A stretch of DNA of 62,420 nt, filler included, from Sphacelaria rigidula (Eukaryota), in assembly GCA_964200075.2 (NCBI GenBank). It is 4 parts of 4 records of this genome, joined end to end, with 100 filler letters (N's around TTAATTAATTAA, not from the genome) between each part and the next. Parts side by side here need not be neighbours in the genome. Positions count along the whole stretch, not along the records: positions 31,264 to 46,792 come from CAXNAA020001710.1; 3 more parts are not named here. One strand, given 5' to 3'. Below are positions 31,164 to 61,607 of this stretch, piece after piece; position 1 is the stretch's first letter, and every line of letters starts with the position of its first letter. A program made the position numbers and the translations under genes. The notes below the pieces were generated by a model that saw nothing but the letters and a program-made list of their open reading frames with translations, had not been told where the DNA came from and did no database searches.

Positions 31164-31263
31164 NNNNNNNNNNNNNNNNNNNNNNNNNNNNNNNNNNNNN
31201 NNNNNNNTTAATTAATTAANNNNNNNNNNNNNNNNNNNNNNNNNNNNNNNNNNNNNNNNNNNN
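31164..31263. other. Artificial contig spacer N44-TTAATTAATTAA-N44
   Basis: Same 100-nt spacer. Confidence 0.98.
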
Positions 31264-33063: not shown

Positions 33064-33667
33064 TGTTGAAACAATTCGTGTTCGTAGCACTGTCCTTACG
33101 ACAGGCCAACGATCGTTCAGCAAACAGTAGTACACAGGTTGCACCGGGGTTGATTAGACCACTTTCTTCCGCAGCTTCAGAATATAATCAGTGAGACAAA
33201 TGGTTGATTGGGCTCTTTATTCGGCCAAGAAAAGCAGAACTCGCAGTTTCCTCTCAGGACGGAGAACTGATGGTGTAGTAAAAGGAGAGTGATCATCGAG
33301 GGCAGTGAGAACCACCGACTACAATTGCTCAATCCTTGGAACAAAAAACAAAGCTCTACACGTACGTAGACTAAAACGCGTCCTTGACACTGACGGGGTG
33401 GTTTGCCAGCTCATAGACTGGATTCTTACTCAAGCTACGACACTCAAAAACAATGGCAGCACACTGCCTTATTCTACGAGCTTACGTGGCAAGTCTGACA
33501 GGATATTGAACTCAAGTGTCCATATAAAAACAGTACTTGAACCCTTGGCCAATATTGGGTGGCTCCTAGTTGAACCAGAGCATATTGTCCCGCAAAATTG
33601 GCTACAGAGTAAAACCTCACACACAGAAGATAAACAGCTAGATTGCTGGCTGTATAAATTTCCAACA
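33064..33667. mobile_element. Solo LTR (604 bp) of a second LTR family with 5-bp TSD ACATA
   Basis: ACATA|TGTTGAAA ... TTTCCAACA|ACATA; absent at the equivalent site of copy 2; homologous to 46893-47084. Confidence 0.92.
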
Positions 33668-35001: not shown

Positions 35002-38000
35002 ATGTCGCACAGAAATAACGCTGGCTCTTCCCCTCAATTGGGAAATCAATCGCTTCGTCTGACACGGAGTCAAACCACTGGCGGTTTGAAATCTTTTGAT
35101 ATGCATGTCACGTCACCTCCAACTCTTCGACGCACGTGTGCGAGCGTTGTTCGATCTTCGGGATCTGAAGACCAACCTTCGAGCGATGCTCGTTCTTCGA
35201 GGCTTGAAGAAAAGACTATGACGCCGCGACCTGTTCTCTCATGTACCGATTCGGACTTAGAGAACAGGCTTGTGCCACTGGCTGAGTTATTGGCTCCTGA
35301 CGGACATGTCAGTGAAACCATAACGGTGGATTCCGTAGCACCCTCCTCGCTGCGGCCTGTTCTTACGAATCCCAATGTGGAATCCGAAGTCAGGATTGTG
35401 CCCCCAGCTGAGTCGTTGCCCCCGGCCACACGTGTCCGGTTCGGCCCTGTAACGGTTGCTTCAACCGTGGCACCCAGTCGTATGACGGCTGACACCTCTC
35501 GAGACGACTCAGTCTCCACGAAGCGTATCGCTTCTGAGTCATGCTACGATAGGGGGGGGGATTTTGGGCCGCTTTCTCCCACGAAAGTTCACTTCATTCG
35601 TCGTTGAAAGCAGCCAACGATTGTTCGGACGCGCTTGCGCTCAATAAATAGCGCTTATTCATACTGCTTGACACCGCTTTTACCCAATTACACGCGCACC
35701 GCAAGCGTCTTAGGTTGTTTGACGCACCGATGAGCCCATTTTTTGGTGGAATCAACCCCCCTTCCCCCTTTCGCAGCATGACGCTCCTGGAGCAAGAGAC
35801 TGTGTCACGTGGGCTGCTCCCGTTACGGACCCCTACCGCACGACTCTCGGTAGTCCCGTGCGCCCTACTGCGCAGTCCAATGTCGGACCAGCAGTCGCGA
35901 CCATGCCTTCTGCTCTGAAGACTATGCATCGCACTTCATCGGCGTTGGCGCACTCGCCAGCCTCACCTCTCATCGAGGCATTCACGGCTTTTTGCCAGGC
36001 CACGCTCCAAACCAATCGGCATCTGCTCACGTGCAATTCAACGATGATTCTGCACCTGCCACGCCCACACCCGTACGTTTGGCGCCCCGGTCGGCGACAT
36101 CTCGTCCTCCGTTTGTCACTCATGAAAAATTTCACGAACATGAGGCCAGCCCCTCCTCGACGTCGAAGCAGAGTCTTGCTCGCGCTCCTGACCGGCGCCG
36201 CACACCGAAGTTGATCACCACCACGTCACCCGTGCTGGCAGTTCAAAGGATAACTGCCAGCAAAGCTTGAATTCATGGCGTATTTTTACACGCCCGAAGA
36301 ATGTTGCTCATGGTCGTACATATAACCGTAGCTCATGCCACACTTCCAATTTATCACGCGCTCAGAAGCGCCCGGTGAATGTCAACCGTGACCGTACTCA
36401 CGAGGATGATTCGCGGTACAGATCAAGCTCATCGCGCGTTCACTCGCGCTTGAAGAACACCGATCATGCAACCGCGCGCACCCCTCCTGCTCTACCTCCG
36501 TCACGCCGCCGTTATTCACCCGATGATAACATCGTACATGCGGACGATATTCAAAATATATTGTCAGACATGTCACCGGCTCTGGAATCCTCAATTGAGG
36601 GATCCGGTCGCACTTCATCGTAAAACCGACGACCCCGCAATGACCGCGACCCACCGTCCCGCTCCCACGCTGCGATTATTCTTTCGCTTCGACAACGATT
36701 GACAGATCTCGAGCGACAACTATCAACAATGCCGACCTCAAGATCCACTGCCGCCGTCGCCAAGACCACGAAGAAGACCCCCGGCGTTACTGCAGCTACT
36801 GTTGCCGCTACAACCGCCGCTGCCGCCGCTGCTACCTCGGCCGCTGCGCATTCTGCCGCCCCCACGACGGCCCCGACACCCGCTGCCGCCCCATCTGCGG
36901 TTGATACTGACGCAGGTAGTGGCCCATCCACTGGCACAGTCGCGGGTGCCCCCCGTGCGCTCGCCCCCGTCTCTGGAAGATCTTCCTTCGCTCGGCGACG
37001 AGCATTGCCCTATCGGGCTGCTGTTGAGGCTTTTCAGGGACCACCCCCGTGTGAAACAACTGGAACTCATGAACGATTATGCCTCATATGCGCCGGCGCT
37101 GGCCCACGACGTCCTCGAGCAACAGAGGGAGGCCGACGCCACTGCGGCACGCGTCATCGCCGAAGAACACGCTGCCAAGCATCTAAACCTCCAGCGCCAG
37201 GCTTCACGGGCTCAGGCTACCAACTCCGCGGCTCAACGCGCGCTACATGAAGGTTGGCGGCTTAGCAGCGCGTTCAGGACCTCGAGGAGCATGCCCGCCG
37301 AACTGCAAATGACGCGGCCACGTCGGTGGCTCGTCGCTCACCATCCAGTCTCTCCGCCGTCCATCGGCAACACGCCCGGTGGTCGCTCTCACCGCCGGCC
37401 AACGGCCAGTACGTCTACGTACGTCATCCCACGCAAAACAGACGACACGTCGTATGCCGCGGCTAGCTCGGTGGCCGATGCCCGCCTGACGCTAGGTCTG
37501 CAACTGGCGCCTCGCGAACGAGTGTGGCTTTCTCGTTCCACGGCCGATCATACCGCCTACTTCCACAGAAGAAACCCCCTCCACTGCCCCCGCGAGGCCT
37601 GGAACCTAATTTCGCAACGCATGCTCTTCGCTGTTAGTGTTTACGTGGAGCAGGGAGGCTTCTTCCCCGACGAAGGCGTATCGGCACTCACCTTGGGCCA
37701 ACTGGTCTTCCAAACGACTATCGGCGATCACCCGGATCACCAGTGTTACGTCGCCGCTGTCACCGATCGTTTTGCGGCGTTACGCGCCGCTTACAACCCT
37801 GATCCCGGCGCCACCATCGCTGACGATGACGAAGATGAAGGTGGGTGGACTTCCGCAAGTACCAACTGCCGGGGACATAAGAAGAACCACCGACGGGATG
37901 ACGACGACAACGATGGAGGAGACTCACGCCGCCGCCATGGTGGTAGAGGATCTCTTCGGGCGGCTTCGCACCAAACCGCCCGGCTCGCAACCCTCGCGGC

Positions 38001-39646
38001 CCGCCTCTCAAGAACACCGGAGGTGATTCTTCTGGATCTTCCGCGACAGGCTGGAACCGGTCTGGTACAGACCTGCTCCCCTCGGGTCCGGCGACACCAA
38101 GGCAAGTGATCCCTAAATTGGCTGATATTCCGGCCTGCATTTTAGGCTTATCTGATTCGGACACACCTGACCGTCCATTATCTTCTACTGCAGCCCCCGC
38201 TTTAGCAACCGCTACGGCTGACAAAGAACGCTCCGAAGCTAGTAAAAAAGCAGCTTCCAATAGAGCCGAGTCTGCACGAGTAGCTGCAATACAGAGACAG
38301 TATGTTCAGATGGATGGGAAAAAGCTCTGGCACATTAAAACCATGCCTGCTGCGGATAACGAAGATTCGGGCCAGTTTACTTTTGCCCTCATCACGTCCA
38401 TTCGCCGCACTGTTTGTAACATCCTTCACTTGGCGGATGCAACTGGCACACAACGTTCCGAAGATTCCGATTGGGTAGAGGGTGACAGACTCCCTTGCAT
38501 AGAGCATTGCATCGATCCATCAGTCGCCGCTCTCCCGACATCGCTGCCTCTTTAACACAGATCCTCGACGGCTTCCCCGCCGGAATGGATCCGGATCGTG
38601 CCGAGGGGAAGACAGGCCCGGTGTTGCTCTCTGATTTGGAGAGGCGTTTAACAGGCTACTTTGGCAGAAGTGACCAAGCCAGCGCCATCCAGAGGGTGAG
38701 GTTTTTGCTGTTGCATCGGATGTCCCCTTCGCGGACTATCTCCGCGAATTTAAGCTTTTGGTTTCTGGTACCACGGGTGTCGGACGCCAAAACGGACCGA
38801 GCGATGCAATGTGTCAGACTTACGTTCGCAATAGCGCTGCTCAACAGTATCCGGCTCCGATGCCGTCGTTGTTTCTGGGTGTCTTGGCGCATCGCGAGGT
38901 GCCTTACGCCTCTGTTGATACTATGTGGTCTGCTTTCGTACACCAAGAGGGTAATCTAACGCCGGTCATACGCTTCTACGTCTATGCGTTCACAACCTAC
39001 GGTCGTATCCTCCGCTCATGCTCAAGGGGCTCGCGGCAGGAATTCGAGCTCATCTCGCGCTTCATGGATCCCCGACTCGGTCGCCGGTTCAGTTGTGCAT
39101 GCTCAGAGTGCCAGAGATGCATCCAGTGCGAGTTTCGATGGATGGTCGTTTTCCGAGGAAACTTGGGATGATATTTGTTTGACTTCAACAACGGCATTCA
39201 TAGCCGATTACCCCCATTTGTGGAACCCACTTTTTTCGTCTTCCGCTAGACGTAATGCCTTCAGCAGTCATGTCAACAGTTGCATCAACTGTAGTGTTCA
39301 AGGCCACAGCATGCGCGACTTTGACAGTCCATGCATCAATGCCTTTGATCTCATGAACCCTGAATTGCAGGACAATAAACCCGCGTGGCGCCAATGGCAA
39401 AAACGCATACGCGACTACTGCCCACCTAATCGAAATTACCGTAACCATTCGAATCAACGTGGAAACAAAAGCTCTAGTCGCGGTCGCCGACAAAACAACA
39501 ATCACGCAAGCCTTCGCCAGAATGAGAAACATTCTGGCGACAACAAACGTTCCGCTGATAGACACCAGCGGACGGGACCGACACAAAGCCCGAATCCCAA
39601 CACCAGAAACCCTGGTACCTTCACTACGGATCACCTTGATCCATGA
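35002..39646 (+). pseudogene. gag: Gag polyprotein (very long, disrupted)
   Basis: ATG context shared with copy 2 (MSHRNNAG). Capsid-like VASDVPFADYLREFKL segment near 38710-38760. Zinc knuckle CINCSVQGHSMRD(F) at 39281-39322 with the last Cys mutated. Frameshifts and a MITE insertion. Confidence 0.8.
35536..35784 (+). mobile_element. MITE family A (249 bp) inserted in gag; 4-bp TSD TTCT/TCCT
   Basis: TIRs GAGTCATGCTACGATAGGGGG / CCCCCTTTCGCAGCATGACGC. Copy 2 shows the empty site ATCGCTTTTGGAGCAAGAGAC (minus strand, ~57480-57500). Confidence 0.9.
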
Positions 39647-42600
39647 CGTGCCAACGCTGGCATTCTCCGGTCTTCCACGCCGCCGATAGCACGAGCGAAG
39701 ACTTTCTCAACACAGTCCGCGGAGTCCGTGTCTAAAATTGCTCACTCGACTCCCCCGGCACAATCCAGGAGCGTAACTGATGGCCGTTCAAATCGACCCC
39801 CGTTTCCAACCTCCACACACTTTTCAATACAGCCCGCAGAGCCCGCGACTAGGATTGTTCGCCCGGCTCTCCCGGCACTATGCAGAAGCGCAACTGACGA
39901 CCGTTCATATCGACCCCCGTCTTCACCCCTTCACACACCGCCTAACACTTCTTTCACCCCACTACTCAGACCTACACCCGGCTTTGAACCTAGTCCTTCA
40001 GTGCCATGTATAAGCCTAAGGTGTGGGAAGACCAATCGCCAGTCCCTGAGGCAGAGGCTTCCCTCAGCGACCGCACGCACAGGTAGTAGCAAGCCTTCTT
40101 CAGCTGACCCAAGTGTTGCTGATTTGAACTTGACCACATCGCATCATGCAACTCCCAATCAGTTGGATCGAGCTCCTTCCCCGCGATTGTCAACACGCAC
40201 AGACCTACCTTCGGTCGGTTCTGATAACACCCGCCCTAACATATCTTCGGCTATGACCCAACAGCCAAGCTTGCCTACGGAAAGCAGCCCACAAGTTTCG
40301 ATCCGTCATGCCCCGATGCTGACCCCATCCGCACAAGTGGACGCAGTTGTGGTTTCATCCAAAAATGTTTTGGAAGTTCCCCGACCTTTGTCGCGGCGAA
40401 AGAGAAAGCCCCGTAAGCATGACCCCAAGGACGCGCGCGCATCATCACGTACACCTCTTTCGAGCGGAAATCCTCGATCTCAACCTCTCCAAAATTGCGA
40501 CGACTTTGAGTTCGGCGGTTCTATCAAGTATCCCGGAAGAAACAAAAAAAAATTCTGACGGCACTACTTCCTCAATCGACAACTCCAGTTTCGCACATTC
40601 TGGATCCCCCTTGGTCGGTGATCCCTGTCAACCAAAGACGATCATTTACGACATCGCCAATGGCCATTCTGACCGTGCCACGCCTGGAAATAATATACCG
40701 TCCACCCGCTTCTCTGGTGAGACATCTGACCCACCAGCGGACCACCCGCCGTGCGTTTTTGCTGTCAGCCCCGCTGATCCTGACCAGTGTACCTTGCCGG
40801 AATACGGTCCGGGTTTTGTCGGTGGTAAAGTGTCTGTAGATTCGGCCACTTTCACTACGCGCGTTGGGATCCATTGCGGTCCGAACGCTATCATGCCTGC
40901 GAAGTGCGTATCCTTGTTGGACAGCGTCAGCCCGCAAACATTTGTTCGAGAATCAACATGGGAACACATAAAACAGACTGGCGCTGCTACTGACGCTTGC
41001 GAAACCACCACCCAACCTCGAGTATGGGGCGGTTTCGGTGATTCTGCCGCACCACTGACGACACGTAAACCCGTACGTCTCAGTGTACAATTTTTTCACG
41101 ACACCACTCGATCTGCCAGCCTGGCAGTCTGGGCATACATTGTCCCCGACAACACAATGCATCACGCCATATTATTGGGCTGAGATAGCTATATGCGGTT
41201 TCATAAAGGCACCTACCCCACGTTTCCACCACTAGCGCCACATTCCACGCCTCGTGGAGAATTCAACCTCGAACACTTTGGTACTCTCCACGGCGCCTGG
41301 CCCACCAGGAGAATACCCAAGCAAACGGAGCTGCTTACCACCTACGTTACAACGGTAGCGTTGATATTACACTCTCCGACGGCCCCCAACTTCTAGAAGT
41401 TGCACTAGTTCGCCGAAATGGCATGCCAGCACTTACGGGCCACTATCTTGCCGAATCGTTACCCCCTATTGGCGCACCAGTCGACACAAAACATCTTGTG
41501 TCGGCGGGACAAGAACTCCCCCCTCTTACGGGTCATGCTAATTTGGAACCCAGCGATGTTTTAGGAATCGCCGCTGCTCCCTGATGCGCATCCCACTTGA
41601 GATGTGAGTAACAGAGTCTGCCGCGCCAAACGCCACATCTCCGGCGGAGTCAGTCCATTGTGTCGATGAACCTTATTTCGACCTCGCCTCTGCGACTCCA
41701 CCCCAGGTTCACACTGTGGATCTTGCCCAGTCAAATTCCGATCCTCTTGCTGAAGTGCTTCAACGCTCATCACCGGATTCTCGGAGAAATTTCTTGCACA
41801 TGTGGAACCAACTGCCGTCACACATGCGCGACATCAAATTTGACATTCATGGGCCCGGCTGGAAACCGGAAGTCATCAGAGAACTCGGTGATGTCCTGCT
41901 ACAGTACCAAGACCAATTTTCCCGATCCAAGACGGATCTTGGGCATTGTAAAGCACTGCCCTTTGAGGTTACCCTCCAACCCGGCGTCTCGCCGATTTCT
42001 TCTCGGCCATACCGAACAAAGCCGATCCTTACCAAGAAAGTTGACGCCACCTTGGATGCGTATTCGGGAGCGGGAAGGATACAACATTCCTCTTCTCCTT
42101 GGACCTCGCCCCTTGTGGTCGTCCCCCAAAAGGATGGAAACATACGCATAACCGTGAATTGTCAACGGTTGAGCCGGGTCACTGTGGTCGGGTCACTTCC
42201 AATTCCCCGCATTGATGAACTCTTCGACTCCCTAGGCGAAAGGAAAAATATTCGGCACCTTCGACCTCGCTTCTGGATGTTTCCAGAATACCATTCACCC
42301 TGTCACAGTCCCAAAGACGGCCTTTTGTACCTCGTCCGGACTTCACCAGTGTCTCCGAATGCCACAAGGCGCCGCCACTGCCCCGGGATGCTTTCAACGC
42401 TTAATGCAAGGCGCCATCGAGGGCCTCGAGCACATCATGATGTACCTGGATGACGCTATCGCTTTCGATGCCGCACCTATTGCACACATACGCACTCTAC
42501 GAGAATTTATCTCTCGCCTACGCACGCACGATCTGAAACTGTCTCCATCCAAAGCTCGCCTTGGCGCGACTGACTTGGGTTCCTTGGGGCATTCCTTTTC

Positions 42601-45600
42601 TCCAGCAGGCCTGCATCCGGACACAAAGTCAAAGCGATGGCTGACTTGCCGATGCCAACTAACATTTCTGAACTTCGCTCATTGTTGGGCGGGCTACCCT
42701 AGTACCGAAATGTTTTGCCGAATTTATCGAAACGGATTCGCCCCCTTACTGAGTTACTCAAGAAAGGAGCCGTGTTTTCCTTCACAACCGAAATCGAGAA
42801 TATTACCCGCGAATTACTCAAGACGCTTACCGGAAAGCCGGTTCTTTGCTTTCCGGATTGGCGGGCAGTACAAGATGGGTCCCGTCTTTTCCAACTCCAT
42901 ACTGACACCAGCACGAACGGGTTTGGACGAGTTTTGGATCAACTTCAGGTTGATGGCTCCGTCCGACCCATCCTCTATATTGGCCGCGCTACCCTGCCCG
43001 ACGAGGCCAATTGGAGCCCGCTAGAACTGGAAGGCGGAGTATTCACTTGGGCCATCCAGCGCCTTCGACAATACCTGTTTCACGCGCCCTTTGGCATATA
43101 TACGGATCACGGAGCACTCGAAAAACTCGCCAAGGTTGGCGAACACAACCTGTGTGTACAACGATGGTTGGAGTGTTTAACAGCATATCAGTGTACCATT
43201 AAGCACCGTCCAGGCAAAACCAACGGAAACGCTGATCTTCTTTCTCGCCTTCTCCTGCCGCCTACGGCCGCAGATTCCAGCCCGGCTTGCGGTTTAACGG
43301 AACCCGATAAGCCCAGAATATACGCGATTAGACGTTTTTCAACGCCCGTTTACGCCCTCGACCTCCAGTGCCCGGAAACCGGTACGCATTTGGGAGGACC
43401 TCGCCCTCTACCATATGACGCCATCTTGGGTGGGTTAAAGCCCACTACCTCCGATTTTGTCGATTTCCGCACTTTCGGTACTCGCGTGCAGCTCTTCGCG
43501 GAGACACCTCCAGTCACCCACCATATCTCTGACAGCACCCGCTCCCTGTCTGCCGCCTGCACCACACCGAGTGCCCCGCCGCCACCGATAACACCTGCAA
43601 CCTCTACGAGCCACCCAGCACAAACTCCACGGACCAACACGCCACGCTCAGTGAAACGTTCTGCAACGTGCACCACGCGCCGGGGACAGTCTTCGCCGCG
43701 CGCTGTTACAGCCCCGCCGCCTATAACGGCGCCGCAAACATCTACTGCTCCCGAGCTCGGGACTGGCGAGTTAGCTCCTGCGCCCGCGACAGATACTGAC
43801 GTCCGCATTTCTGCCCCGTCGCTTATTCCCCCGCCGCCTACCCCGTCATGTTTGGTCGGCTCGTCAGCGGAAGGTCAACTACGCGAATTTCTCACCAGCT
43901 ACTGTCACCGCGATTGGGCTCGCGAACAAACCGCAGAATCGCTATGTCGCGCAGCCATGCGGTACTTACAACTCGACTGTCCAGTCCCTTTCCCATTCAC
44001 ACTTCTGGCCCCGGTTGGCACACTGCCACCACGAGTTATTTCTGACGTATACGAGCTCGTGCGTAAAGGCACCCTTTTTACTACGGATGAAGGTGTGCAA
44101 CCACTCGTGCATTGGCCCACGCCTTTGACAGGCGCAATTTCCGCCTCAACCACGGGACGCCACGCATGAATACTCGATGACGAACCAACGCGCATATATG
44201 TGCCATTATTAATGCGTCCCTGGGTCATGAAAGGCTGCCACACCGACTTGTCATGCCACCTTGGCGTCCCCCGCACCCTCGCACTCTTGGAACGCTTCTA
44301 CTGGTGGGATGTCATGGAAACTTCAAACCACTTCCGGATTCGGCGATGCTTCAAATGCCAAGCCCGAAAAACTTCACGACAGACAGTACGCTGGCCCGTC
44401 ATCCTTACGGGACTCCCCGACGAGCCCGGCCACGTTGTGTCCTTTGACTACTTTGGCCCTCTACCGACCACAGGTCGCGGCAACGCCTACATCTTACTTC
44501 TCACTGACCGCTTCAGCCGCCACGCCTCCATGTACGCGGTAACCGCCGCAGATTTCACTGCCGCCGGAACGGTCGACATATTGGTCCACGATTACACTAC
44601 GCACTATGGTTGCCCAAAGCGACTCCTTTTAGATAATGGTCGGCAATTTTGCTCAGATCTCTCTGAGGAGCTTTATAGGCTCCTGGGCGTCTGCAAAATT
44701 GCCACGAGCGCCTACAACCCGAACGGTAACGGTGATACCGAAAGAGTTAATCACACCATGGCCCAAATGCTCTCTATCGTTGTAAATGGTCGCCAAAATG
44801 ACTGGGACCTACATCTCTCGCACATCATGTTGTCCTACAACAACTCGATTAACGCCGCCACAGGCCTTTCTCCGAACGAACTACATCTTGGACGTAACCC
44901 TCGGCTGCCCATCACCGTGTTTGAGCGCCACACGTTCGACGACCACCAAGGATTGTATCAGGATCAGATATCCTACCACGAGCTAGCGCATGCACGACAA
45001 CGCAAAGCGTTTGCCATCGTGCGCGAACAACACGCTATCAACATCTCGCGCCTAGAGAGATCTACACTGCTCTCTACGACCTCATGCACAAACGCCCTAA
45101 CTGGAAATTTGGTGATTGGGTTTGGATCCACAACAACTTGTTGACCATCTGCCAAGGCACCAGCAGGGCAGCCAACGAGACAATTTTGAAGACAAATTGT
45201 CGCTCAATTGGACAGGACCATTCAAGATCCTGATAGTCGGACCATCGTCATCATCCCCAGATGATAAACCAGTTGGTAACAAACTTCTATTTCTCGACTT
45301 GCCTCGCGACTTCCAGGGCAAGGATACCAAACCCCGCGTCTCCGTGCACAGATGCAAACCCTGCACGAACCCGCATGATGCAAGTGACATGCCCAAGTAC
45401 CTGCCTGCCGGACGCACACAGTATGTTCTCAACAGCTACTCGACCAGGTCCCCGCCCTACCACGTGACAACCGACGACGTGACAAAACAGCCCCTTCGAT
45501 TGACCGTGTCCACCATCTCCGGCCACAAGATAAACCGTGGTCGAGGTGGCAAACTCACTGTCACGTATGAGACACACTGGCACGGTCTTCGGAGAGCGTC

Positions 45601-46102
45601 TTGGGAACGCGAATCCGACCTTCAATTGCACCGCCGTGCAATTCTTCTGTACTGGATGCAATCCCAACATCAGCATCTTGCTCACAACAGGAAATATCGC
45701 AACATGCGTCGTGGCGTAGCAGCCCATGAGCTTCACCGCCATCGGGAACTACGCTTTGTCGCCGATGGCTACGAACTTGTACCCACCAAGACTTGAAAGA
45801 CAAAGTTCTTTGCAACCCAGCGAATACTGCCCAAGGGCAGCTACCTTCGGTTCAAAGGCAGCGACAGCCTCTGGTGGTTGGGCCAGACCCACTCCGCCAA
45901 CCTCGTTTCGGCCGACACATACCTCGTGCGCTTCATCGATGACCCTGGACCCATACAGCTTTATCTCCGGCCAGCATTATACACCACCAGCCCATCTGCT
46001 CCACGCGGATACTGGTGCCTCCAGCACCTTAAGTCCAAAGGAATTAGCCGTGGTCTCCAGCGCAACATCGGCCACACCCACGACGTCCACGCCCCGCTTT
46101 GA
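39647..46102 (+). pseudogene. pol: Pol polyprotein: aspartic protease, RT, RNase H, integrase, chromodomain, Tudor-like domain (disrupted)
   Basis: LLDS(V)SPQTFV (~40915); YLDD (42443-42454); LHTDTSTNGFG..LELEGG..YTDH..NADLLSR (42890-43250); HHCC and DDE core FDYFGP/LDNGRQF/ERVNHT (44200-44900); WTGPF (~45208); chromo (~45495-45630); Tudor-like (~45830-46030). Confidence 0.95.
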
Positions 46103-46329
46103 ACTACGCTCCCTTGCCGCAACTGTCCCCCCCCCCATTTTTGTAGCATTGCTTTCCCCCCCTTCTCCACCAGGACCCTCTTCTACGACGACATTACAAC
46201 CGCGTGACCTACATCGGACGACGATCAAGAAGTACTGAGACGACCACCATCTACGACTGCTACAGCTTTAGTATCCCTTTGCGGCTGGCGCTCGATCTCG
46301 TCAGATCACCGACGTTCAGATCTCTGCTC

Positions 46330-46720
46330 TTGCACCTTTTTTTGCACCTTTGGATTCCCCCAGGTTGAAGGTCTGCTCCCTGTTGTAACTTTGAATTTCC
46401 TCAGGTTGAAGTTCTGTTCCCTGCTCTACCTTTGGCCTCCCCCACGTTGACGTTTGTAGATCGCTAGCACGCAGAAGCAGTTTGTGCTTCCGCGTTTCGG
46501 AGCAGAAAAACCTGCTCCGAAACGCGGAAGCACAAACTGCTTCTGCGTGCTAGCGATCAACGAAGAAGGACAAATTGCTTCGGCGTCCTAGCAAAGACTA
46601 AGGGGGGGGAAACGGGGAGGTACAACAGGGAGCAGAGCTTCAACCTGGGGAAATCCAAAGTTACAACAGGGAGCAGAGCTCCAACCTGGGGGAATCAAAA
46701 GGTGCAAAAACAAACTGCAA
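46330..46720. repeat. ~390-bp foldback: perfect 47-bp stem (46459-46505 / 46512-46558, loop AAAAAC) inside inverted arrays of a 41-bp repeat
   Basis: Stem checked base by base. Outer arms carry CTTTGGATTCCCCCAGGTTGAAG..CTGCTCCCTGTTGTAA units and their reverse complements. Confidence 0.95.
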
Positions 46721-46792: not shown

Positions 46793-46892
46793 NNNNNNNN
46801 NNNNNNNNNNNNNNNNNNNNNNNNNNNNNNNNNNNNTTAATTAATTAANNNNNNNNNNNNNNNNNNNNNNNNNNNNNNNNNNNNNNNNNNNN
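46793..46892. other. Artificial contig spacer N44-TTAATTAATTAA-N44
   Basis: Same 100-nt spacer. Confidence 0.98.
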
Positions 46893-47084
46893 CGTGGCAA
46901 TACCAACAAGATATCTAACTCAAGGATCCATATAAAAGAGGTACTTGTACCCGGAATCTCGGGTTAGATTTGTGCTATTATCCGACTACCCGAACCGTCA
47001 CTAGTTGTCCCGCGAATTTTCTACAGAGTAAAAACTCACACAAAAGATATACCGTTAGATTGCTGGCTGTGTAAATTTCCAACA
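46893..47084. mobile_element. Partial LTR of the same family as 33064-33667, inserted in the 3' UTR of Gypsy copy 2 and cut by the contig start
   Basis: Ends TAGATTGCTGGCTGTGTAAATTTCCAACA, like 33639-33667. Gypsy homology to copy 1 (CATCGGACGACGATCAAGAA) stops at this point. Confidence 0.9.
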
Positions 47085-47222: not shown

Positions 47223-50200
47223 TCAAAGCGGGGCGTGGACGTCGTGGGTGTGGTCGATGTTGCGCTGGAGACCGCGGCGAAGTGCTTTGGAGTTGAGGCG
47301 CTGGAGACACCAGGATCCGCGTGGTGCAGATGGGCTGGTGGTGTATAGCGCTGGCCGAAGCTTGAGCTGTATGGGTCCAGGGTCATCGATGAAGCGCACG
47401 ATATATGTGTCGGCCGAAACCAGGTTAGCGGAGTGGGTCTGACCCAACCACCAGAGGTTGTCGCTGCCTTTGAACCAAAGGTAGCTGCCCTTGGGCAGGA
47501 GTCGCTGGTTCGCAAAGGACTTCGTCTTACAAGTCTTGGAGGGTAGAAGTTCGTAACCATCTGCGACAAAGCGTAGTCCCTAGTTGCGGTGAAGTTCGCG
47601 AGCTGCTGCGCCACGGCGCATATTGCGATATTTCTTGTTGTGAGCAAGATGCTGATGCTGGGATTGCGTCCAGTAAAGGAGAATTGCATGACGGTGCAAT
47701 TGCAAGTCGGATTCGCGTTCCCAAGACGCTCTTCGAAGACCGTGCCAGTGTGTCTTATACATGACAGCGATCTTGTCTCCTCGACCACGGGTTATCTGGT
47801 GGCCGGAAATGGAGGACACAGCCAACCGAAGGGGCTGTTCCGTCACGTCGTCGGCTGTGACGTGGTAGGGTGGGGACTTGGTCGAGTAGCTGTTGAGAAC
47901 GTACCGTGTGAGTCCGGCCGGCAGGCACTTGGGCATGTCGCTTGTATCATGTGGGTTCGTGCAGGGTTTGCATCTGTGCACGGAGACGCGGGGCTTGGTG
48001 TCTTTGCCCTGGAAATCGAGAGGCAAGTCGAGATAGAGCAGTTTGTCACCAACGGGTTTTCCATCCGGTGATGATGACGATGGTCCGACTGTCAGGAGTT
48101 TCCTGTCCAATTGAGAGACAATTTTGTCTTCAAAATTGTTTGGTTGGCTGCTTTGCTGGTGCCTTGGCGGATGGTCGACAAATTGTTGTAGATCCAAACC
48201 CAATCACCAACTTTCCAGTTAGGGCGTTTGTCCATGAGGTTGTAGAGAGCAGTGTTAGATTTCTCCAGGCGCGAGGCATTGATAGTGTGTTGTTCGCGCA
48301 CGAGGGTGAACGCTTTGCGTTGTCGTGCATGTGCGAGCTCGTTGTAGGATATCTGATTCTGATCCAATCCTTAGTGACCGTCGAACGTGTGTCGCTCGAG
48401 CACGGTGATAGGCAGCCGAGGGTAGCGTCCAAGATGGACTTCGTTCGGAAAAAAACCTGTGGCGGCATTAACCGACTTGTTGTAGGACAACATGATGTGC
48501 GAGAGATGTAGGTCCCAGTCATTTTGGCGGTCATTGACAACCATAGAGAGCATCTGGGCCATGGTGTGATTAACTCTTTCGGTACCACCGTTACCGTTCG
48601 GGTGGTAGGCGCTCGTGGCAATTTTGCGGATGCCCAGGAGCTTGTAAAGCTCATCCGAGAGGTCTGAACAAAATTGCTGACCATTGTCTGAAAGTAGTCG
48701 CTTCGGGCAGCCGTAGTGCTTAATGTAATCATGGACCAGTATGTCGGCCGTTCCGGCGGCAGTGAAATTTGCGGCGGTTACCGCTTACATAGACGCGTGG
48801 CGGCTAAAGCGGTCAGTGAAGAGTAAGTATAGGTGTTGCCGCGACCTGTGATCGGGAGAGGGCTGAAGTAGTCAAAGGACACAAGGTGGTCGGACTCGTC
48901 GGGGAGCCCCATAGAGATCACGGGCCAGCGTACTGTCTGTCGTGAAGTTTTTCGGGCTTGGCATTTAAAGCATCGCCGAATCCAGAAGCGGCTTACAATT
49001 TCCATGCCCACCCACCCGTAGAAGCGTTCCAAGAGCGCGAGGGTGCGGGTGACGCCAAGGTGGCATGGCAAGTCTGTATGGCAGCCTTTCATGACCCAGG
49101 GGCGCATTAATAATGGCACATGTATGCACGTTGGTTCGTCATTGAGTAGTCGAGCGGTGCTTCCCGTAGTTGAGGCGGCAATTACGCCTGTCAAGGGCGT
49201 GAGCTGACGTACGAGTAGTTGCACGCCTTCATCCGTAGTAAAAAGGGTGCCTTTACGCACGAGCTCGTATACGTCAGAAATAACTGGCGGTGACAGTGTC
49301 CCAACCGGGGCCAGAAGTGTGGACGGAAAAGGGACTGGACAGTCAAGCTGTAAGTACCGGATGGCTGCGCGACATAGTGGTTCTGCGTTTTGTTCACGAG
49401 CCCAATCACGGTGGGAGTAGCTGGCGAGAAACTCGCGTAGTTGGCCTTCCGCTGGCGAGCCGACCAAACATGGTAGGGCAGGCGGCGGGGGAACAGGCGA
49501 CGGGGCAGAAATATGGACGTCAAGATCTGTCTCGGGAGCAGGAGACGAGGCGTCAGTTCCGTGCTCGGGGGCAGAAGATGTTTGCGGCGCCAGTATAGGC
49601 GGCGAGGTTGTATCAGTGCGCGGCGAAGATTTTTCGCGGCGCGTGGCGCACGGTGCTGAAGTTTTTGCGGAGCTTTGCGTGTTGGTCCGTGAAACTTGTG
49701 CTGGGTGGCTCATAGATGTTGAAGGTGTTATTGGTGGCGGCGGGGCACTCGGTGTGGTGCGGGCGGCAGACCGGGAGCGCGTGTTGTCGGCGATAAGGTG
49801 GGTGACTGGAGGTGTCTCCGCGAAGAGTTTCGCGCGAGCACCGAAAGTGCGAAGATCGACAAAATCGGAGGGAGTGGGCTTCAACTCACCCAAGACGGCG
49901 TCATATGGTAGAGGGCAAGGTCCTCCCATATGCATACCGGTTTCCGGACACTGGAGGTCGAGGGCGTAAACGGGCGTTGAAAAACATCTGATCGCGTCAA
50001 TTCCGGGTTCATCGGGTTCCGTTAATCGGCAAGCCGGGCTGGAATCTGCGGCCGTAGGCGGCAGAGGCAGGCGGGAAAGAAGATCCGCGTTCCCGTTGGT
50101 TTTGCCTGGACGGTGCTTAATCGTATACTGATATGCTGTTAGAAATTCCAACCATCGTTGTACACGAGGGTTGTGTTCACCAACCTTGGCGAATTGTTCA

Positions 50201-53200
50201 AGTGCTCCGTGATCCGTATAGATCTCGAAGGACACGTGAAACAGATATTGTCGAAGGCGCTTAATGGCCCAAGTGATTACTCCGCCTTCCAGTTCTAGCG
50301 GGCTCCAATTGGCCTCGTTGGGCAGGGTAGGGCGGCTGATAAAAAGGATGGGTTGGACAGAGCCATCAACCTGGGGTTGATTCAAAACTCCTCCAAAACC
50401 ATTTGTGCTGGCGTCAGTATGGAGTTGGAAAAGGCGGGAGCCATCTTGTACTGTCTCCCAATCAGGAAAGCAAAGTACGGGTTTTTCGTTAAGCGTCTTG
50501 AGTAATTCGCGGGTGATAGTCTCCATTTCTGTGGTGAAAGAAAACATGGCTCCTTTCTTGAGTAGCTCAGTAAGGGGGCGAATCCGTTTCGATAGATTTG
50601 GCAAAAAATTGCGGTAGTAGGATAGCCCACCCAACAATGAGCGAAGCTGAGAAATGTTAGTTGGCATCGGTCATAGCCTTGATTTTTCTTGTATCCGGAT
50701 GCAGGCCTGCTGGTGAAATGAAATGCCCCAAGAAATCCAAGTCAGTCGCGCCAAGGCAAGCTTTGGATGGAGACAGTTTCAAATCGTGCGTACATAGGCG
50801 AGAGAGAAATTCTCGTAGAGTGCGTATATGTGCAATAGGTGAGGCATCGAAAGCGATAGCGTCATCCAAGTACATGATGGTGTGCCCGAGGCCCTCGGTG
50901 ACGCGTTGCATTAAGCGTTGAAACCATCCCGGGGCAGTGGCGGCGCCTTGTGGCATGCGAAGCCACTCATAGAGTCCGGACGAGGTGCAAAAAGCCGTCA
51001 GTGGGACTGTGTCAGGGTGTATAGCATTCTGAAAAAATCCAGACGCGAGGTCGAAGGTGCTGAATATTTTGCCTTCGCCTAAGGAGTCAAAGACTTCATC
51101 AATGCGGGGAATTGAAAGTTTACCGACGACAGTGACGCGGTTCAACCGTTGATAATTCACGGTGATGCGTATGTTTCCATCATTTTTGGGGACGACCACA
51201 AGTGGCGAGGCCCAAGGAGAGGAGGAATGTTGGATTAGTCCCGCTCCCAAATACGCATCCAAGATGGCGTTAACTTTCTTGGTAAGGATTGGGTTGGTAC
51301 GGTATGGCCGAGAAGATATCGGCGAGACACCGGGTTGGAGGGTAACCTCAAAGAGCAGTGTCTTGCAATGCCCAAGATCCGTCTTGGATCGAGAAAATCG
51401 GTCTTGGTACTGTAGCAGGACACCACTGAGTTCTTGGATGACTGCCGGTTCCCAGCCGGACCCATGAAGGTCAAAATTGATGTCGCGCATTTGTGGCGGC
51501 AGTTGGTACCACATGTGCAAGAAGCTATTCCGAGAATCTGGTGATAAGCGTTGAAGTACTTTAGCAGGACGATCGGAATTTGACTGGGCAGGATCCACGG
51601 TGTGGACCTGCGGTGGAGTAGCAGAGGCGACATCGAAGTAAGGTTCTTTGACACAATGTACTGACTCCGCCGCAGATGTGGTGTTTGGTGCGGCAGGCTC
51701 TGTGACGCACGTCTTGAGTGGGATGTACATCAGGGGAGCAGCGGCGATTCCTAAAACATCGGCGGGTTCCAAGTTAGCATGGCCCATAGGAGGGAGGAGT
51801 TGTTGTCCCGCCGACACAAAATGTTCTCTGTCGGCTGGTGCGCCAATACGGGGTAACATATCGGCAAGATAATGGCCCGTAAGTGCTGGCATGCCATTTC
51901 GGCGAACTAGTGCAACTTCAAGAAGTTGGGAGTCGTCGGAGAGTGTGATACCCACACTACCGTTATATCGTAGGTGGTAAGCAGCTCCGGTTGCTTAAGG
52001 ATTCTTCTGGTTGGCCAGGGTGCCGTGGAGAGTACCGAAGTGCTCGAGGTTGAATTTTCCATGCGGCGGGGAATGTGGCGTTAGTGGTGGAAGCTTGCGG
52101 TAGGTGCGTTTATTAAACTGCATATAGCTATCTCTGCCCAATAATATGGCGTGATGCATGGTGCTGTCGGGGATAACGTATGCCCAGACTGCCAGGCTGG
52201 CAGATCGAGTGGTGTTGTGAAAGAGTTGCACACTGAGTTTACGGATTTATGTGTCGTCAGTGGTGCGGCAGAATCACCGAAACCGCCCCACACGTGAGGT
52301 TTGGTGGTGGTTTTGCAAGCTGCAGTAGCAGCGCCGGTCTGCTTCATGTGTTTCCATGTTGATTCTCGAATAAATGTTTGCGGGGTACCGCTGTCGAACA
52401 AGGATACGCATTTCGTAGGCGTGATCGAGTTTGGACCGGAATGTATCGCAACGCGAGTAGTTAAAGAGGCCGGATCTACAGACACTTCACCGCCGACAAG
52501 ATCCGGACCATGTTCCGGCAAGGTAAACTGGTCAGGATCAGCGTGGCTGACAGTAAAAACGCATGGCGGGTGATCAGCCGGTGGGTCAGATGTCTCACCA
52601 AAGAAGGGGGTGGACGGTATATTATTTCCAGGTTTGGCACGGTCATTGACGATTTCGTAAATGATCGTCTTTGGTTGACAAGGATCACCGTCGAAGGGGG
52701 ATCCAGAATGTGCGGGGCTGGAGTCGTCGATCAGAGAAGTAGTGCCGTTAAAATCATGTGATTTTGTTTCTTCCGGGATACTTGATAGAGCAGTCGAGCT
52801 CAAATTCGTCGCATTTTGGAGAGACTGAGGTCGAGGATTTCCGCTCCAAAGAGGTGTACGTAATGATGCGCGCGCGTCCTTGGGGGCATGCTGACGGGGC
52901 TTTCTCTTTCGCCGTGACAAAGGTCGGGGAACTTCTCAAACATTTGGGGATGAAACCACAACTGCGTCCAGCTGCGTGGATGGGGTCAGCATCGGGGCAT
53001 GACGGAGCGAAACTCGTGGGCTGCTTTCCGTAGGCAAGCTTGGCTGTTGGGGCATAGCCGAAGATATGTGGGGGCGGTTGTTAGTAAAACCGGCCGAAGG
53101 TAGGTCCGTGCGTGTTGAAAATCGCGGGGAAGGAGCCCGATCGAACTGATTGAGAATTACATGATCCGATGAGATCAGATTCAAATCAGCAACACTTGGG

Positions 53201-53661
53201 TCAGCTGAAAAAGGCTTGCTGCTACCTGTGCGTGCGGCCGCAGAGGGTAACCTTTGCCTCAGTGACTGGCGGTTGGTCTTCCCACACCTCAGACTTATAC
53301 TCGGCACTGAAGGACCAAGTTCAGTGCCGGGTGGAGGTCTGAGTCGCGGGGTGACACAACTGTTACGCGGTGTATGGAGGGATGAAGACGGGGGTCGATA
53401 TAAACGGCCGTCAGTTGCACTCCTGCATAGTGTCGGGAGAGCCGGGTGGACAGTTTAAGTCGCGGGCTCTGCGGGCTGCGTTGAAAATTGTGTGGACGGT
53501 GGAGACGGGGGTCGATACGAGCGGCCGTCAGTTACGCTCCTGGATAGTGCCGGGGGAGTCGAGTGAGCAGTATTAGACACGGACTCCGCGGGCTGTGTGA
53601 AGAAAGTCTTCGCTCGTGCTATCGACGGCGTGGAAGACCGAAGAACGCCGGCGTCGGCACG
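47223..53661 (-). pseudogene. pol: Pol polyprotein: PR, RT, RNase H, INT, chromodomain, Tudor-like domain (disrupted)
   Basis: LFDSGTPQTFI (DSG at 52387-52395); RT ORF 50657-51955 with FSTFDLASGF and YLDD (50861-50872); RNase H to HHCC ORF 48778-50667; chromo ISGHQITRGRGDKIAVMYKTHWHGLRRASWERESDL; Tudor-like at ~47300-47500. Confidence 0.95.
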
Positions 53662-56600
53662 TCATGGATCTAAGCGATCCGAAGTGAAGGTACCAGGATT
53701 TCTGGTGTTGGGATTAGAACTTTGTCTCGGTCCCGTCCGCTGGTGTCTATCAGTGGAACGTTTGTTGTCGCGAGAATTTTGATCATTCTGGCGAGGGCTT
53801 CCGTAATTGTTGTTGTGTTGGCGACCACGATTAGAGCTCTTGTTGCCCCGGTGGTTCGAATTGTTGCGGTAATTTCGATTTGATGGACGATAGTCGCGCA
53901 TGTGTTTTTGCCATCGGCGCCACGCGGGTTCATTGTCCTGCAATTCAGGGTTCATGAGATCAAAGGCAGTGATGCATGGACTGTCACAGTCGCGCATGCT
54001 GTGGCCTTGAACACTACAGTTGATGCAACTGTTGGCATGACTGCTGAAGGCATCGCGTCTAGCGGAAGACGAAAGAAGTGGATTCCACAAATGGGGCTCA
54101 TCGGTTATAAATGCCGTTGTTGAAGTCGAATAAATGCCATCCCAAGTTTCCTCGGAAAACGGCCAATCATCAAAACTCGCGCTAAATGCATCTCTGGTAC
54201 CCTCAACATGCATAACTGAACCGGCGACTGAGTCGGAGGTTCATGAAGCGCGAGACGGGCTCGAATTCTTTCCACGAGCCTCTTGGGTATGAGTGGAGGA
54301 CACAACCGTAGGTTGTGAACGCACAGGCGTTGAAGGTTTGCCACGTATGGCAAGCGTTAGATTACCTTCTTGGTGTACAAAAACAGACCACATAGTATCA
54401 ACGGAGGAGTAAGGCACCTCGCGATGCGCCAAGACACCCGGAAACAACGACGGCATCAGAGCCGGATACTGTTGAGCAACGCTATTGCGGGCGTAAGTCT
54501 GACACATTGCGCCGCTCGGTCCATTCTGGCGTCTGACACCCGTCGTACCCGAAACCAAAAGCTTAAATTCTCGGAGATAATCCGCGAAGGGGACATCAGA
54601 GGCGACAGCAAAAAAACTCAGCCTCTGGATGGCACTGGCCTGGTCACGTTTATCGAAGTAATCGATCATACGCTTCTCCAAATCAGAGAGTATTAGGGGG
54701 CCTATCTTCCCCTTGGCACGGTCCGGGTTCATCTCGGCGAGGAAGTCGTCGAGAATCTGCGTTAAGGAAGCAGCGAGGTCCGGAGAGCGGCGGCTGATCG
54801 ATCGGTGCATTGCTTTGTGCAAGGGAGTCTGGCAGCTCTCTACCCAGTCGGAATCTTCGAAACGTTGTGTGCCAGTCACATCCGCCAAGTGAAGGATGTG
54901 ACAAACAGTGCGGCGGACGGACGTGATGAGGGCAGAAGTAAACTGGCTCGAATCTTCGTTATTCGCGGCAGACACGGTTTTGATGTGCCAGAGTTTTTTC
55001 ACATCCATCTGAATATACTGTCTCTGTATTGCAGCTACTCGGGTAGACTCAGCTCTATCGGAAGCTGCTTTTTTGCTAGCTTCGGAACGTTCTTTGTCAG
55101 CCGCAGCGGTTGCTAAGGCGCGGGCTGCAGAAGACAGGGGACGGTCAGGTGTATCCGTATCGGACAAACCTAAAATGCGGGCCGAAACATTAGCCAACTT
55201 GGGAATCACTTGCCTGAGGGTCGCCGAGTCCGAAGCGGGAAGATCTGTGTCAGACTTGTTCCAGCCGGGTGCCGATGAACCGTAAGAGTTACCTCCGTGG
55301 TTTTTTCGGTGCGGTTTGCGAGGCGGGAGGTTCGGTTCGGAACCGCCCGAAGAGGATCCCCACGGCGTGAATTCCCTCCATCGTTGTCGTCGTCGTCGCG
55401 CCTGTGATTCTTCTTCTGACCCCGGTAATTGGATGTTACGGGAGTCCACCCATCTTCATCGTCGTCTCCGTCGATGGTGGCGCCGGAATGAGTGTTGTAG
55501 GCGGCACGAAGCGCCGCAAAAAGTTGGAGGACCGCGTCAACGCAATTTTGGTGGTCCCGGTGATTGCCAATGGTCGTCTGCAGAACCAGTTGGCCCAAGG
55601 TGAGCACCGAGACGCCCTCCTTGGGGAGGAAGCCGTTCTGTTCGACGTAAACCCCAACAGTATAGAACATACGTTGGGAGATCAAGGCCCATGCGTCTTG
55701 GGAACAGTGGAGGTGGTTTTGGCGGTCAAAAGAACCGGTGTAAGTGGTCACAGGACGAGAAAGCCATTCTCGTTCGTGGGACACGAGTCGCAAGTTTTGC
55801 GCCGAAACGGGGCTCGGCACCGAGCTAACTTCTTGCGGTGGCGGTGTCGGAGGCGCCGTGGCGGCGGTAGCGGTCGCAGCAGACGACGTCCGGTCGGACT
55901 TACGTGGAATAACGTAAGTCGATCTGTTGGGCGCCGGCAGGTGGGTTCTGAGAAAGTTGTTGGCGGAAGGCAGAGAGGCTTGATGGTCGGATAGGCGCGC
56001 CACCGACGAATCCGCTGCTTGGGCTGTCCGCTAAGCATGATCGTCTAGCTCGCGGACCCGTCTTTGGGCCGCCATGGCCGCAGTAAGGCCCTCCTGTAGC
56101 GCTCGTTGTGCCGCCGTGCTCGTGGATTGAGCGTGGGAGGCCTGCCGCTGGAGGTCCTTCAGCATTTCTGCGTGCTCCTCTATAAAGAGGCGGGCAGCGG
56201 CGGCGTCAGCGTCACGTTGCTGACTAAGTATGTTTTGCGCCAATGCAGGCGCCTGAGATGTATAGTCGGCTTGCTCCACGCGGGGTCGGTTTGTGAACGA
56301 CCGTAAGAGTAGGCCGGTCGGGCATTGCTCGTCGCCGAGCGGAGGGAGGACCTCCACGGATGGGAACGGGCGCACAGGGGCAGTTGTGGAACCACTATCG
56401 GCGTCTGTGTCGACGGCCGACGGAGCGGCAGCGGCTGTAAGTGCTGTCGCGGGGGCGGCTGAAGGCGTAGCGGCCACAGTAGCGGCAGTAGTAGCTGCGG
56501 GGGCGCGGGTGGGCTTCGTGGCGGCGGCAGCGGATATGGAGGTGTCCATGGTGGACAGTTGCCTCTCAAGTTCTGTCAAGCGCTGTTGAAGACAACGAAT

Positions 56601-61152: not shown

Positions 61153-61154
61153 AA

Positions 61155-61570: not shown

Positions 61571-61607
<37 letters not shown>

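Follow-up and report, generated by a model that had tools for sequence, protein, structure and literature searches.

Introduction

Among natural cases in which an element itself encodes the targeting of its integration, the clearest are integrases fused to readers of chromatin, and almost all of those known carry a single chromodomain. The chromodomains of chromoviruses act in cis, while HIV integrase is tethered to marked chromatin in trans by the PWWP domain of the host protein LEDGF/p75. It was reportedly proposed by Gao et al. in 2008 that chromoviral chromodomains tether the integration complex and thereby bias the choice of target. Here, the 3′ end of pol was analyzed in a Ty3/gypsy family of long terminal repeat (LTR) retrotransposons of the brown-alga type, two dead copies of which lie in a 62,420-nucleotide stretch of DNA from Sphacelaria rigidula (assembly GCA_964200075.2), the whole of which is referred to as the window. 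Beyond its GPY/F motif, the integrase of this family ends in a conserved module of ~200 amino acids (aa), in which a divergent chromodomain, a basic structured connector and a Tudor-like barrel are predicted. A brown-algal Ty3/gypsy lineage whose intact polyproteins, up to 2338 aa in length, appear to carry two Royal-family folds in tandem raises the question of what a retrotransposon reads where the usual heterochromatin marks are missing, and of whether the added Tudor-like barrel is the answer.

The closest described elements are those of the brown alga Ectocarpus. According to the main text of a study published in 2025 (PMC12477816), four Gypsy lineages are present, three of which have putative C-terminal chromodomains, one of these three being the centromeric ECR-1. 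All families of one Gypsy lineage are described there as bearing an N-terminal NADAR domain, the example given being Gypsy-12_Ec32, which also serves as a chromodomain example, while Gypsy-10_Ec32, the fourth lineage, has a C-terminal Tudor domain and is called the first transposable element (TE) with a domain of this kind. The same main text places the brown-algal chromodomain Gypsy lineages outside the chromovirus clade, and reports that H3K9me1/2/3 and H3K27me3 are absent in Ectocarpus and that H3K79me2 and H4K20me3 are linked to repeats. Group II chromodomains, in which aromatic residues 1 and 3 of the cage are missing, are said in PMC3605345 to be known only from plant chromoviruses. For the PHF1 Tudor domain, the cage is given as W41, Y47, F65 and F71 (PMC7492083). 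Fusions of chromatin domains to transposons are reported to involve mostly Chromo and PHD, followed by SNF2_N, SET and others (bioRxiv 10.1101/2021.11.30.470311).

Results

Organization of the C-terminal module

It can be observed from the translation of both copies that the integrase is followed by a chromodomain-like stretch, a 57-aa connector and a 91-aa tail, in that order (45116-46099 on the + strand in copy 1; 48203-47226 on the - strand in copy 2; Table 1). The chromodomain sits C-terminal to the GPY/F region, in the same frame as a WTGPF motif that we take to be the GPY/F module of Ty3/gypsy integrases, and intact relatives share the order. The succession of WTGPF, chromodomain, linker and Tudor-like stretch, which had been put forward in an earlier note made from the sequence of this DNA, is therefore confirmed. 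The linker is present as that note described, at 57 aa in place of the ~70 aa stated, and is predicted to be structured in the model of P0005, a natural relative of 237 aa that is 73-78% identical. Each copy carries one in-frame stop in the connector, a TGA at 45794-45796 in copy 1 and a TAG at 47582-47580 in copy 2. These stops are located at non-homologous places and the other copy is open at each, and P0005 shows no stop between the chromodomain and the shared C-terminal end, in agreement with the previous suggestion that the consensus is a single open frame. The final stops, at 46100-46102 in copy 1 and 47225-47223 in copy 2, are homologous.

The 118-aa open reading frame (ORF) of copy 2 (47223-47579) was the query of the word-based and profile searches and the sequence folded by AlphaFold2. 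Five relatives were returned by the word-based search, one of them from Sphacelaria rigidula and another being P0005, while the exhaustive profile search over 1.84 billion representatives yielded 333 proteins with E no higher than 1e-3, of which 138 had E no higher than 1e-10. The named relatives from the profile search are all brown-algal, comprising Nemacystus decipiens, Ectocarpus sp. CCAP 1310/34 and one eukprot record that is apparently Undaria. Frame and motifs are retained in relatives at 30-50% protein identity, and one 90%-identity cluster has as many as 197 members, so the lineage looks recently active. Between the two copies in the window, 17 synonymous changes over 84.5 sites and 17 non-synonymous changes over 263.5 sites were counted in the tail, giving a ratio of non-synonymous to synonymous divergence (dN/dS) of 0.29 (Fisher p 6e-4), with the ratio at 0.31 in the chromodomain and 0.22 in the connector. 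The module genuinely codes for protein and is under purifying selection.

Thirty-four long relatives of P0008 (705-1998 aa) were searched with an individual profile for each part of the module, the chromodomain, the connector and the barrel. All three parts were found in order at the C-terminus in 22 of the 34; three others showed the chromodomain only, and the remaining nine, which cover only part of the query, showed none. Among the 13 proteins of at least 1500 aa (ten 90%-identity clusters), 12 contain the whole module, and the chain ends 11-30 residues past the barrel. In P0203 (2184 aa), P0228 (2338 aa) and P0196 (2075 aa), the polyprotein runs from NADAR through reverse transcriptase (RT), RNase H and integrase to the module, the NADAR domain lying near the N-terminus of Pol in these three and in P0178 (E 1.9e-40 to 3.6e-49). 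Intact relatives thus run through to the end of the barrel instead of stopping after the chromodomain, and the module belongs to Pol in them. Since these relatives bear NADAR, they correspond by domain content to the Gypsy-12-type lineage.

The barrel also terminates proteins without an integrase. P0037 (828 aa) and P0035 (612 aa), which are 29% identical to each other over ~650 aa, both end in the same barrel, beginning at the G-Y-x-L-V strand, and in P0072 (626 aa) an unrelated N-terminal part is followed by chromodomain, connector and barrel. The barrel, with the strand and helix preceding it, can thus be seen to behave as a module in its own right. The N-terminal parts of these three proteins were considered as the gag of the element and ruled out, as they match nothing in the window. 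For P0037 and P0035 no Pfam match was obtained for these parts, and P0037 gave no usable match in the ESM Atlas; both proteins are rich in Arg and Ser, and P0156 is an 832-aa member of the 90%-identity cluster of P0037. Furthermore, in P0010, a gene model of Nemacystus decipiens, TIMP and WSC domains are joined to the connector and barrel of the retrotransposon module. It is probably a chimeric prediction that took in a transposon fragment, and pieces of the barrel are in this way already being merged into host gene models.

Predicted fold of the chromodomain and connector

A family profile was needed for recognition of the chromodomain because single-sequence phmmer with the copy 1 chromodomain gave chance matches only, all to ribosomal protein eL15, among solved chains (E at least 0.3). 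The profile, built from 11 chromodomains of the family, matched MPP8 with E 0.0046 and Swi6 with E 0.006, the next match being at E 0.77. The AlphaFold2 model of P0005 (predicted local distance difference test, pLDDT, 81.5; predicted template modeling score, pTM, 0.72) displays a chromodomain, a structured connector and a barrel. In the first of these, strands at residues 40-50, 56-64 and 71-74 and a helix at 75-90 make up a three-stranded sheet with a C-terminal helix. Superposition of residues 35-96 on known chromodomains gave Z-scores of 6-7.1 and a root-mean-square deviation (rmsd) of 1.8-2.5 over 50-57 positions, and Polycomb (1pdq) was matched with TMt 0.79 at 31% identity.

The cage pattern reads L-W-L in both window copies. 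In the profile alignment, the W stands opposite the second cage Trp and an L opposite the Tyr of the MPP8 'KGY', while in an ungapped extension of the Swi6 alignment an L stands opposite the first cage Tyr as well. Which residues of Swi6 and MPP8 form the cage is assumed by us here, consistent with the 'YWY' passage of PMC3605345. The Leu residues reported in the earlier note at cage positions 1 and 3 are thus recovered by alignment with MPP8 and Swi6. Across the family, W occupies position 2 in 24 of 34 sequences, and 20 of 36 have L at position 3. The family does not have the three-residue aromatic cage represented by Y/W/Y of HP1, and L-W-L fits the definition of group II.

The connector of the P0005 model consists of a helix at residues 101-118, a short strand at 128-130 and a helix at 133-141, with pLDDT 88-95. 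Its isoelectric point (pI) is 10-12 in five relatives, and three arginines are nearly invariant, namely R107 (81 of 97 sequences), R113 (86 of 100) and R117 (90 of 103). A complex prediction of the P0005 chromodomain (residues 30-98) with connector plus barrel (99-220) returned a score of 0.08 (mark 0.34), which bears neither way on packing.

Predicted fold of the Tudor-like barrel

The tail of copy 2 was modeled by AlphaFold2 with 60 aligned sequences. In the resulting model (mean pLDDT 82.5, pTM 0.71), five strands are predicted, at residues 33-37, 43-51, 58-63, 69-73 and 90-95 (block pLDDT 90-94), with a short strand and a helix ahead of them and a further helix behind; in P0005 the barrel strands are located at 152-156, 162-170, 177-182, 188-192 and 209-214. 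A small beta-barrel of the Tudor/SH3 type is thus predicted confidently by AlphaFold2, as the earlier note had anticipated. Among the 34 Foldseek matches to the Protein Data Bank that were listed, 32 are Tudor domains and the other two are a PWWP domain and a designed SH3-like barrel. The best was PHF1 (E 0.014, TMt 0.62, rmsd 2.0 over 48), followed by PHF19, MTF2, TDRD3, Spindlin, SGF29 and Tudor-SN, the leading Tudor matches showing TMt 0.6-0.7 with rmsd of ~2 Å over 45-49 columns. The tail model was also aligned with 48,161 chains by VIA-align. In the 50 rows obtained, Z-scores ranged over 5-6.9 and Tudor, PWWP and Agenet chains were prominent, among them Spindlin-4 (Z 6.5), the RDM15 Tudor domain (Z 6.4, rmsd 1.9 over 56) and PHF19 (Z 5.8, rmsd 2.0 over 56). 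Residues 133-215 of the P0005 model matched Tudor-like barrels with Z 5.2-6.2.

Sequence profiles lead to the same proteins. A profile of alignment A3 matched the PHF19 Tudor domain among solved chains with E 0.0021, nine of its ten matches being PHF1 or PHF19 Tudors, and with the profile of alignment A2 all three matches were PHF19 (E 0.1). The D-G-L-W-W-L-G-K-I of the family parallels D-G-L-Y-Y-L-G-K-I in PHF19, and V-R-F-L-D parallels V-T-F-E-D. The Tudor pattern read previously as G.....D..W.......Y.V.F.D survives in its second half, Y.V.F.D, the first half not fitting letter for letter; the motif truly common with PHF19 is G-x8-D-x-L-W-W-L-G-x-I ... Y-x-V-R-F-x-D. The same two families are thus indicated independently by the predicted folds and by the sequence profiles, each a modest signal; these folds are a chromodomain plus a Tudor-like barrel.

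In the barrel, the position of PHF1 Y47/PHF19 Y56 is occupied by W in 118 of 137 sequences, and that of F65/F74 by F in 117 of 148. Together with W154, Y155, W162, Y178, Y198 and W209, each of which is aromatic in ~80% or more, the conserved aromatic positions number eight. For the tails in the window, Pfam gave no Tudor match at E up to 10. The best ESM Atlas match was the KIF2A N-terminal domain (0.86), with Tudor, Agenet and Spin/Ssty clusters at 0.79-0.81; all scores were below 0.9 and serve as leads only. In the viral library BFVD only uncharacterized phage and giant-virus proteins were matched (E at least 0.013). No integrase chain that would indicate an integrase C-terminal domain of the retroviral type was found among the 50 VIA-align rows, and the folds are not thereby shown to be different. 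An origin of the barrel as an internal duplicate of the chromodomain was tried by hhalign of the two profiles and received no support (probability 0.1).

The two copies and the remainder of the window

The window is made up of four contigs of ~15.5 kb each, joined by three linkers (N runs at 15534-15633, 31164-31263 and 46793-46892), every one of which has the form N44-TTAATTAATTAA-N44, a six-frame stop linker. Copy 1 lies on the + strand of the third contig and copy 2 on the - strand of the fourth. Because the copies are on different contigs joined by a linker, their inverted side-by-side arrangement is an artefact, and adjacency across the linkers is artificial. The copies are 83.7% identical over 10.5 kb (35782-46231 versus 57497-47086), with weaker similarity further upstream and a total extent of ~14 kb. 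Pfam on the window ORFs identified RT and RNase H, followed by the zinc-binding domain and the core of the integrase, which is the order of Ty3/gypsy elements. Both copies are dead, with pol split across several frames as seen from the ORF list and tblastn; copy 2 has a frameshift near 48101, within the GPF motif.

Table 1. Positions of the pol regions and of the parts of the C-terminal module in the two copies
Feature	Position	Strand	Basis
Copy 1, decayed pol (protease region, RT, RNase H, integrase, C-terminal module)	40704..46102	+	tblastn of intact relatives P0159, P0160, P0203, P0228, P0196; Pfam RT_RNaseH
Copy 1, ORF piece with integrase zinc-binding domain (H2C2) and catalytic core (rve)	44170..45141	+	Pfam Integrase_H2C2 E 5.6e-10, rve E 6.1e-08
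Copy 1, WTGPF (GPY/F motif, integrase C-terminal region)	45209..45223	+	Translation, frame of 45116
Copy 1, predicted divergent chromodomain, cage L-W-L	45488..45655	+	Family profile against solved chains; P0005 model; dN/dS 0.31
Copy 1, basic conserved connector (predicted helix, short strand, helix)	45656..45826	+	Translation; P0005 model; dN/dS 0.22
Copy 1, predicted Tudor-like five-stranded barrel and short C-terminal tail	45827..46099	+	AlphaFold2, Foldseek, VIA-align, PHF19 profile match; dN/dS 0.29
Copy 2, decayed pol, less broken up than that of copy 1	47223..52620	-	tblastn; Pfam RVT_1, RT_RNaseH, Integrase_H2C2
Copy 2, predicted divergent chromodomain	47670..47837	-	Pfam Chromo E 0.15, below threshold
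Copy 2, connector	47499..47669	-	Translation
Copy 2, predicted Tudor-like barrel and C-terminal tail	47226..47498	-	118-aa ORF 47223-47579

No pair of direct repeats that could represent LTRs was found within either contig, and both contigs stop ~0.2-0.7 kb from the pol stop, so near that the element ends and target sites are undefinable. NADAR, which precedes the protease region in intact relatives, was likewise not detected in the window, either by Pfam on the ORFs submitted to it or by tblastn with NADAR-bearing relatives at E up to 0.01. The Pol of the window element is 41-60% identical to these relatives across the tblastn pieces, mostly 42-50%, and NADAR may have been lost from the element or may never have been part of it.

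Long ORFs without a Pfam match are located 5′ of pol in both copies (36703-40700 on the + strand; 52700-57709 on the - strand), and a tandem duplication of ~118 bases, with units ~79% identical, lies in this region in each (39701-39938, +; 53371-53598, -). A match of ~190 bases at 72% identity, on the same strand, joins a stretch upstream of copy 1 (33485-33667) with one just past the 3′ end of copy 2 (46893-47084), its orientation being opposite relative to the elements; it may be a piece of an LTR or another repeat. At 46459-46558, with ~240 bases of the third contig still to follow, lies a perfect palindrome of the hairpin type, its arms 47 bases long and its loop 6 bases (DNA fold -70.1 kcal/mol, z -19). 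Either a genuine inverted repeat or a fold-back artefact of assembly could account for it. Self-comparison also displayed degenerate tandem or dispersed repeats, with units 62-87% identical, at 61154-62419 on the fourth contig and 28824-29529 on the second.

Discussion

By analogy with known tethers, the module would hold the integrase-cDNA complex to chromatin and thereby bias the sites of new insertions, and we consider such a role as a chromatin tether affecting targeting to be probable, at roughly 0.6. It should be noted that several observations weigh against this reading. The function is read from fold and position only, and both window copies are dead, giving no sign of present activity at the locus. 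For the chromodomain, Pfam Chromo gave 12.4 bits in copy 2 (E 0.15, cut-off 25.1) and no match in copy 1; the best relative, P0008, reached 17.1 bits against the same cut-off, and at E up to 0.01 no Chromo match was listed in eight intact polyproteins. Within the family, 7% of 15 sequences have an aromatic residue at cage position 1, and 6% of 36 have one at position 3. For the barrel, every Foldseek E-value exceeds 1e-3 with both the tail and the P0005 model, and all VIA-align Z-scores are below 8, in the range where a match can reflect a widespread arrangement; scores like those of the Tudor domains are also reached by generic SH3-like barrels, such as a TraI domain (Z 6.9), R67 DHFR (5.4) and NusG KOW (5.1). 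No Tudor-type Pfam model rose above threshold among the 60 A2 members, the weak matches being SH3_VIII-1_N in six, Agenet in two, and PWWP and Tudor_2 in one each. According to the HMMER alignments, aromatic residues are kept at two of the four cage positions of the PHF type (PHF1 W41, Y47, F65 and F71), those lost being PHF1 W41/PHF19 W50, replaced by Ala, Gly or Ser, and F71/Y80, replaced by Pro. An incomplete cage is reported to weaken binding in PHF1, PHF19 and MTF2, with MTF2, in which one cage residue is missing, binding weakly (PMC7492083). The residues W154, Y155, W162 and Y178 might act as spatial substitutes for the lost cage residues.

The dual-reader targeting module suggested in the earlier note stands in so far as two Royal-family-like folds are predicted in tandem, with Tudor the best assignment of the second by structure and by the PHF19 profile match at E 0.0021; its targeting role stays at the level of inference. 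The further suggestion of that note, that the Tudor-like domain may supply the aromatic cage, is so far unsupported, two of its four positions homologous to the PHF1/PHF19 cage being aromatic. Since both cages are incomplete by canonical rules, the ligand may be other than trimethyl-lysine in a classical cage. Moreover, as H3K9me and H3K27me3 are reported absent in Ectocarpus, the classical ligands of chromodomains may not exist in such hosts, and a degenerate chromodomain cage with an added barrel would fit a move to another ligand. DNA would be an equal candidate for it, as would the surface of the nucleosome, in view of the connector pI of 10-12, or a host protein. Direct reading of a methyl mark by the barrel can be put forward tentatively as one possibility. 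A bolder version, which we regard as doubtful, is that chromodomain, connector and barrel act as one composite reader of brown-algal repressive chromatin, for example nucleosomes with H3K79me2 or H4K20me3, through a non-canonical pocket that would be formed by two half-cages or by the extra conserved aromatic residues of the barrel. Insertions would then be steered into silenced regions, and the retrotransposon lineage so steered would be a large and recently active one. If this were true, the barrels of P0037 and P0035 would mark a wider, undescribed family of brown-algal readers.

Three other explanations were weighed against the role as a chromatin tether. It may be that the barrel is no reader of histone marks and is instead an extra SH3-like domain of the integrase that binds nucleic acid or nucleosomes or serves multimerization, with a role like that of the integrase C-terminal domain, the basic connector supplying contacts to DNA or the acidic patch. 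The incomplete cage, with aromatic residues at two of the four PHF-type positions, speaks for this, as do the connector pI and the near-invariant arginines R107, R113 and R117, the equal standing of generic SH3-like barrels and Tudors in VIA-align, and a 2026 paper (PMC13285377) reporting a Tudor domain whose DNA binding overrides its methyl selectivity. However, the sole sequence-profile matches are the Tudors of PHF1 and PHF19, which are methyl-lysine readers, eight aromatic positions are conserved in the barrel, the element already has a GPY/F region upstream, and within Pol the barrel always comes after a chromodomain. On balance, we consider the SH3-like explanation rather unlikely.

It seems improbable that the barrel and the C-terminal Tudor domain of Gypsy-10_Ec32 go back to one and the same acquisition, in which case only the degenerate chromodomain in front would be newly seen. 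A Tudor domain at the C-terminus of one Ectocarpus Gypsy lineage, found with InterProScan or HHpred as stated in the main text of PMC12477816, is consistent with a shared origin, and the family studied here is likewise brown-algal. The relatives here are NADAR-bearing, however, and in that main text the combination of NADAR with a C-terminal chromodomain is exemplified by Gypsy-12_Ec32, with Gypsy-10_Ec32 as a separate lineage. Far less credible still is the idea that the tail is no functional domain, its conservation being due to nucleotide constraint at the 3′ end (polypurine tract or LTR edge) or its translation to chance read-through. A stop precedes the tail in both window copies and Pfam gives no match, which counts in its favor, but these stops differ between the copies and intact relatives are open. 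The dN/dS of 0.29 (p 6e-4), the retention of frame and motifs in relatives at 30-50% protein identity, the confidently predicted fold and the presence of the same domain at the end of unrelated proteins all count against it as well, and this explanation is already largely refuted.

Regarding novelty, full-text searches, together with the main text of PMC12477816, found no other report of a Tudor domain on a retrotransposon integrase or of a chromodomain-Tudor tandem. The earlier note had supposed the architecture to be undescribed, which holds for the tandem as far as the main text of PMC12477816 is concerned, although a TE-borne Tudor domain and Gypsy chromodomains had been published there in 2025. 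A tandem of chromodomain and Tudor-like barrel on an integrase therefore seems not to have been described as such. A TE-borne Tudor domain and the chromodomain of this lineage are already in print; what is not, it seems, is the module with both in tandem, and the fact that its cages are incomplete in a host that lacks H3K9 and H3K27 methylation. In addition, the barrel represents a sequence family outside the coverage of Pfam, for which a model would improve the annotation of brown-algal genomes.

Comparison with known systems

The plant group II chromoviruses (Tekay, Reina and Galadriel) resemble the present family in having a chromodomain at the C-terminus of a Ty3/gypsy integrase with cage aromatics 1 and 3 missing, as reported in PMC3605345. 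In chromoviruses the chromodomain comes last, whereas here it is followed by the connector and the Tudor-like barrel. The lineage of the Gypsy-12_Ec32 type has in common with the intact relatives a NADAR domain (E 1e-40 to 1e-49 in the relatives) and a C-terminal chromodomain, and one relative comes from Ectocarpus sp. CCAP 1310/34. For that lineage, however, the main text of PMC12477816 names a chromodomain only, with no barrel behind it, and in the window copies NADAR was not detected. Gypsy-10_Ec32, like the present family, carries a Tudor-type domain at the C-terminus of a brown-algal Gypsy Pol; it is presented in that main text as a lineage of its own that has a Tudor domain but lacks a chromodomain, and is set apart here by this description only.

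With the Tudor domains of PHF1, PHF19 and MTF2, which provided the best structural and profile matches, the predicted barrel shares five strands and the motifs D-G-L-aromatic-aromatic-L-G-K-I and V-x-F-x-D. Identity is only ~18-26%, and two of the four cage positions are non-aromatic here. Unlike the PHF Tudors, the barrel is extended by a strand and a helix on its N-terminal side and by a helix on its C-terminal side, and it is found in a transposon Pol, not in an accessory protein of PRC2. Finally, the PWWP domain of LEDGF/p75 is the counterpart of the role proposed here, in that a barrel of the Royal family connects an integrase with marked chromatin and biases where integration occurs. LEDGF/p75 is a host protein acting in trans, whereas the barrel described here is part of the integrase polypeptide itself.

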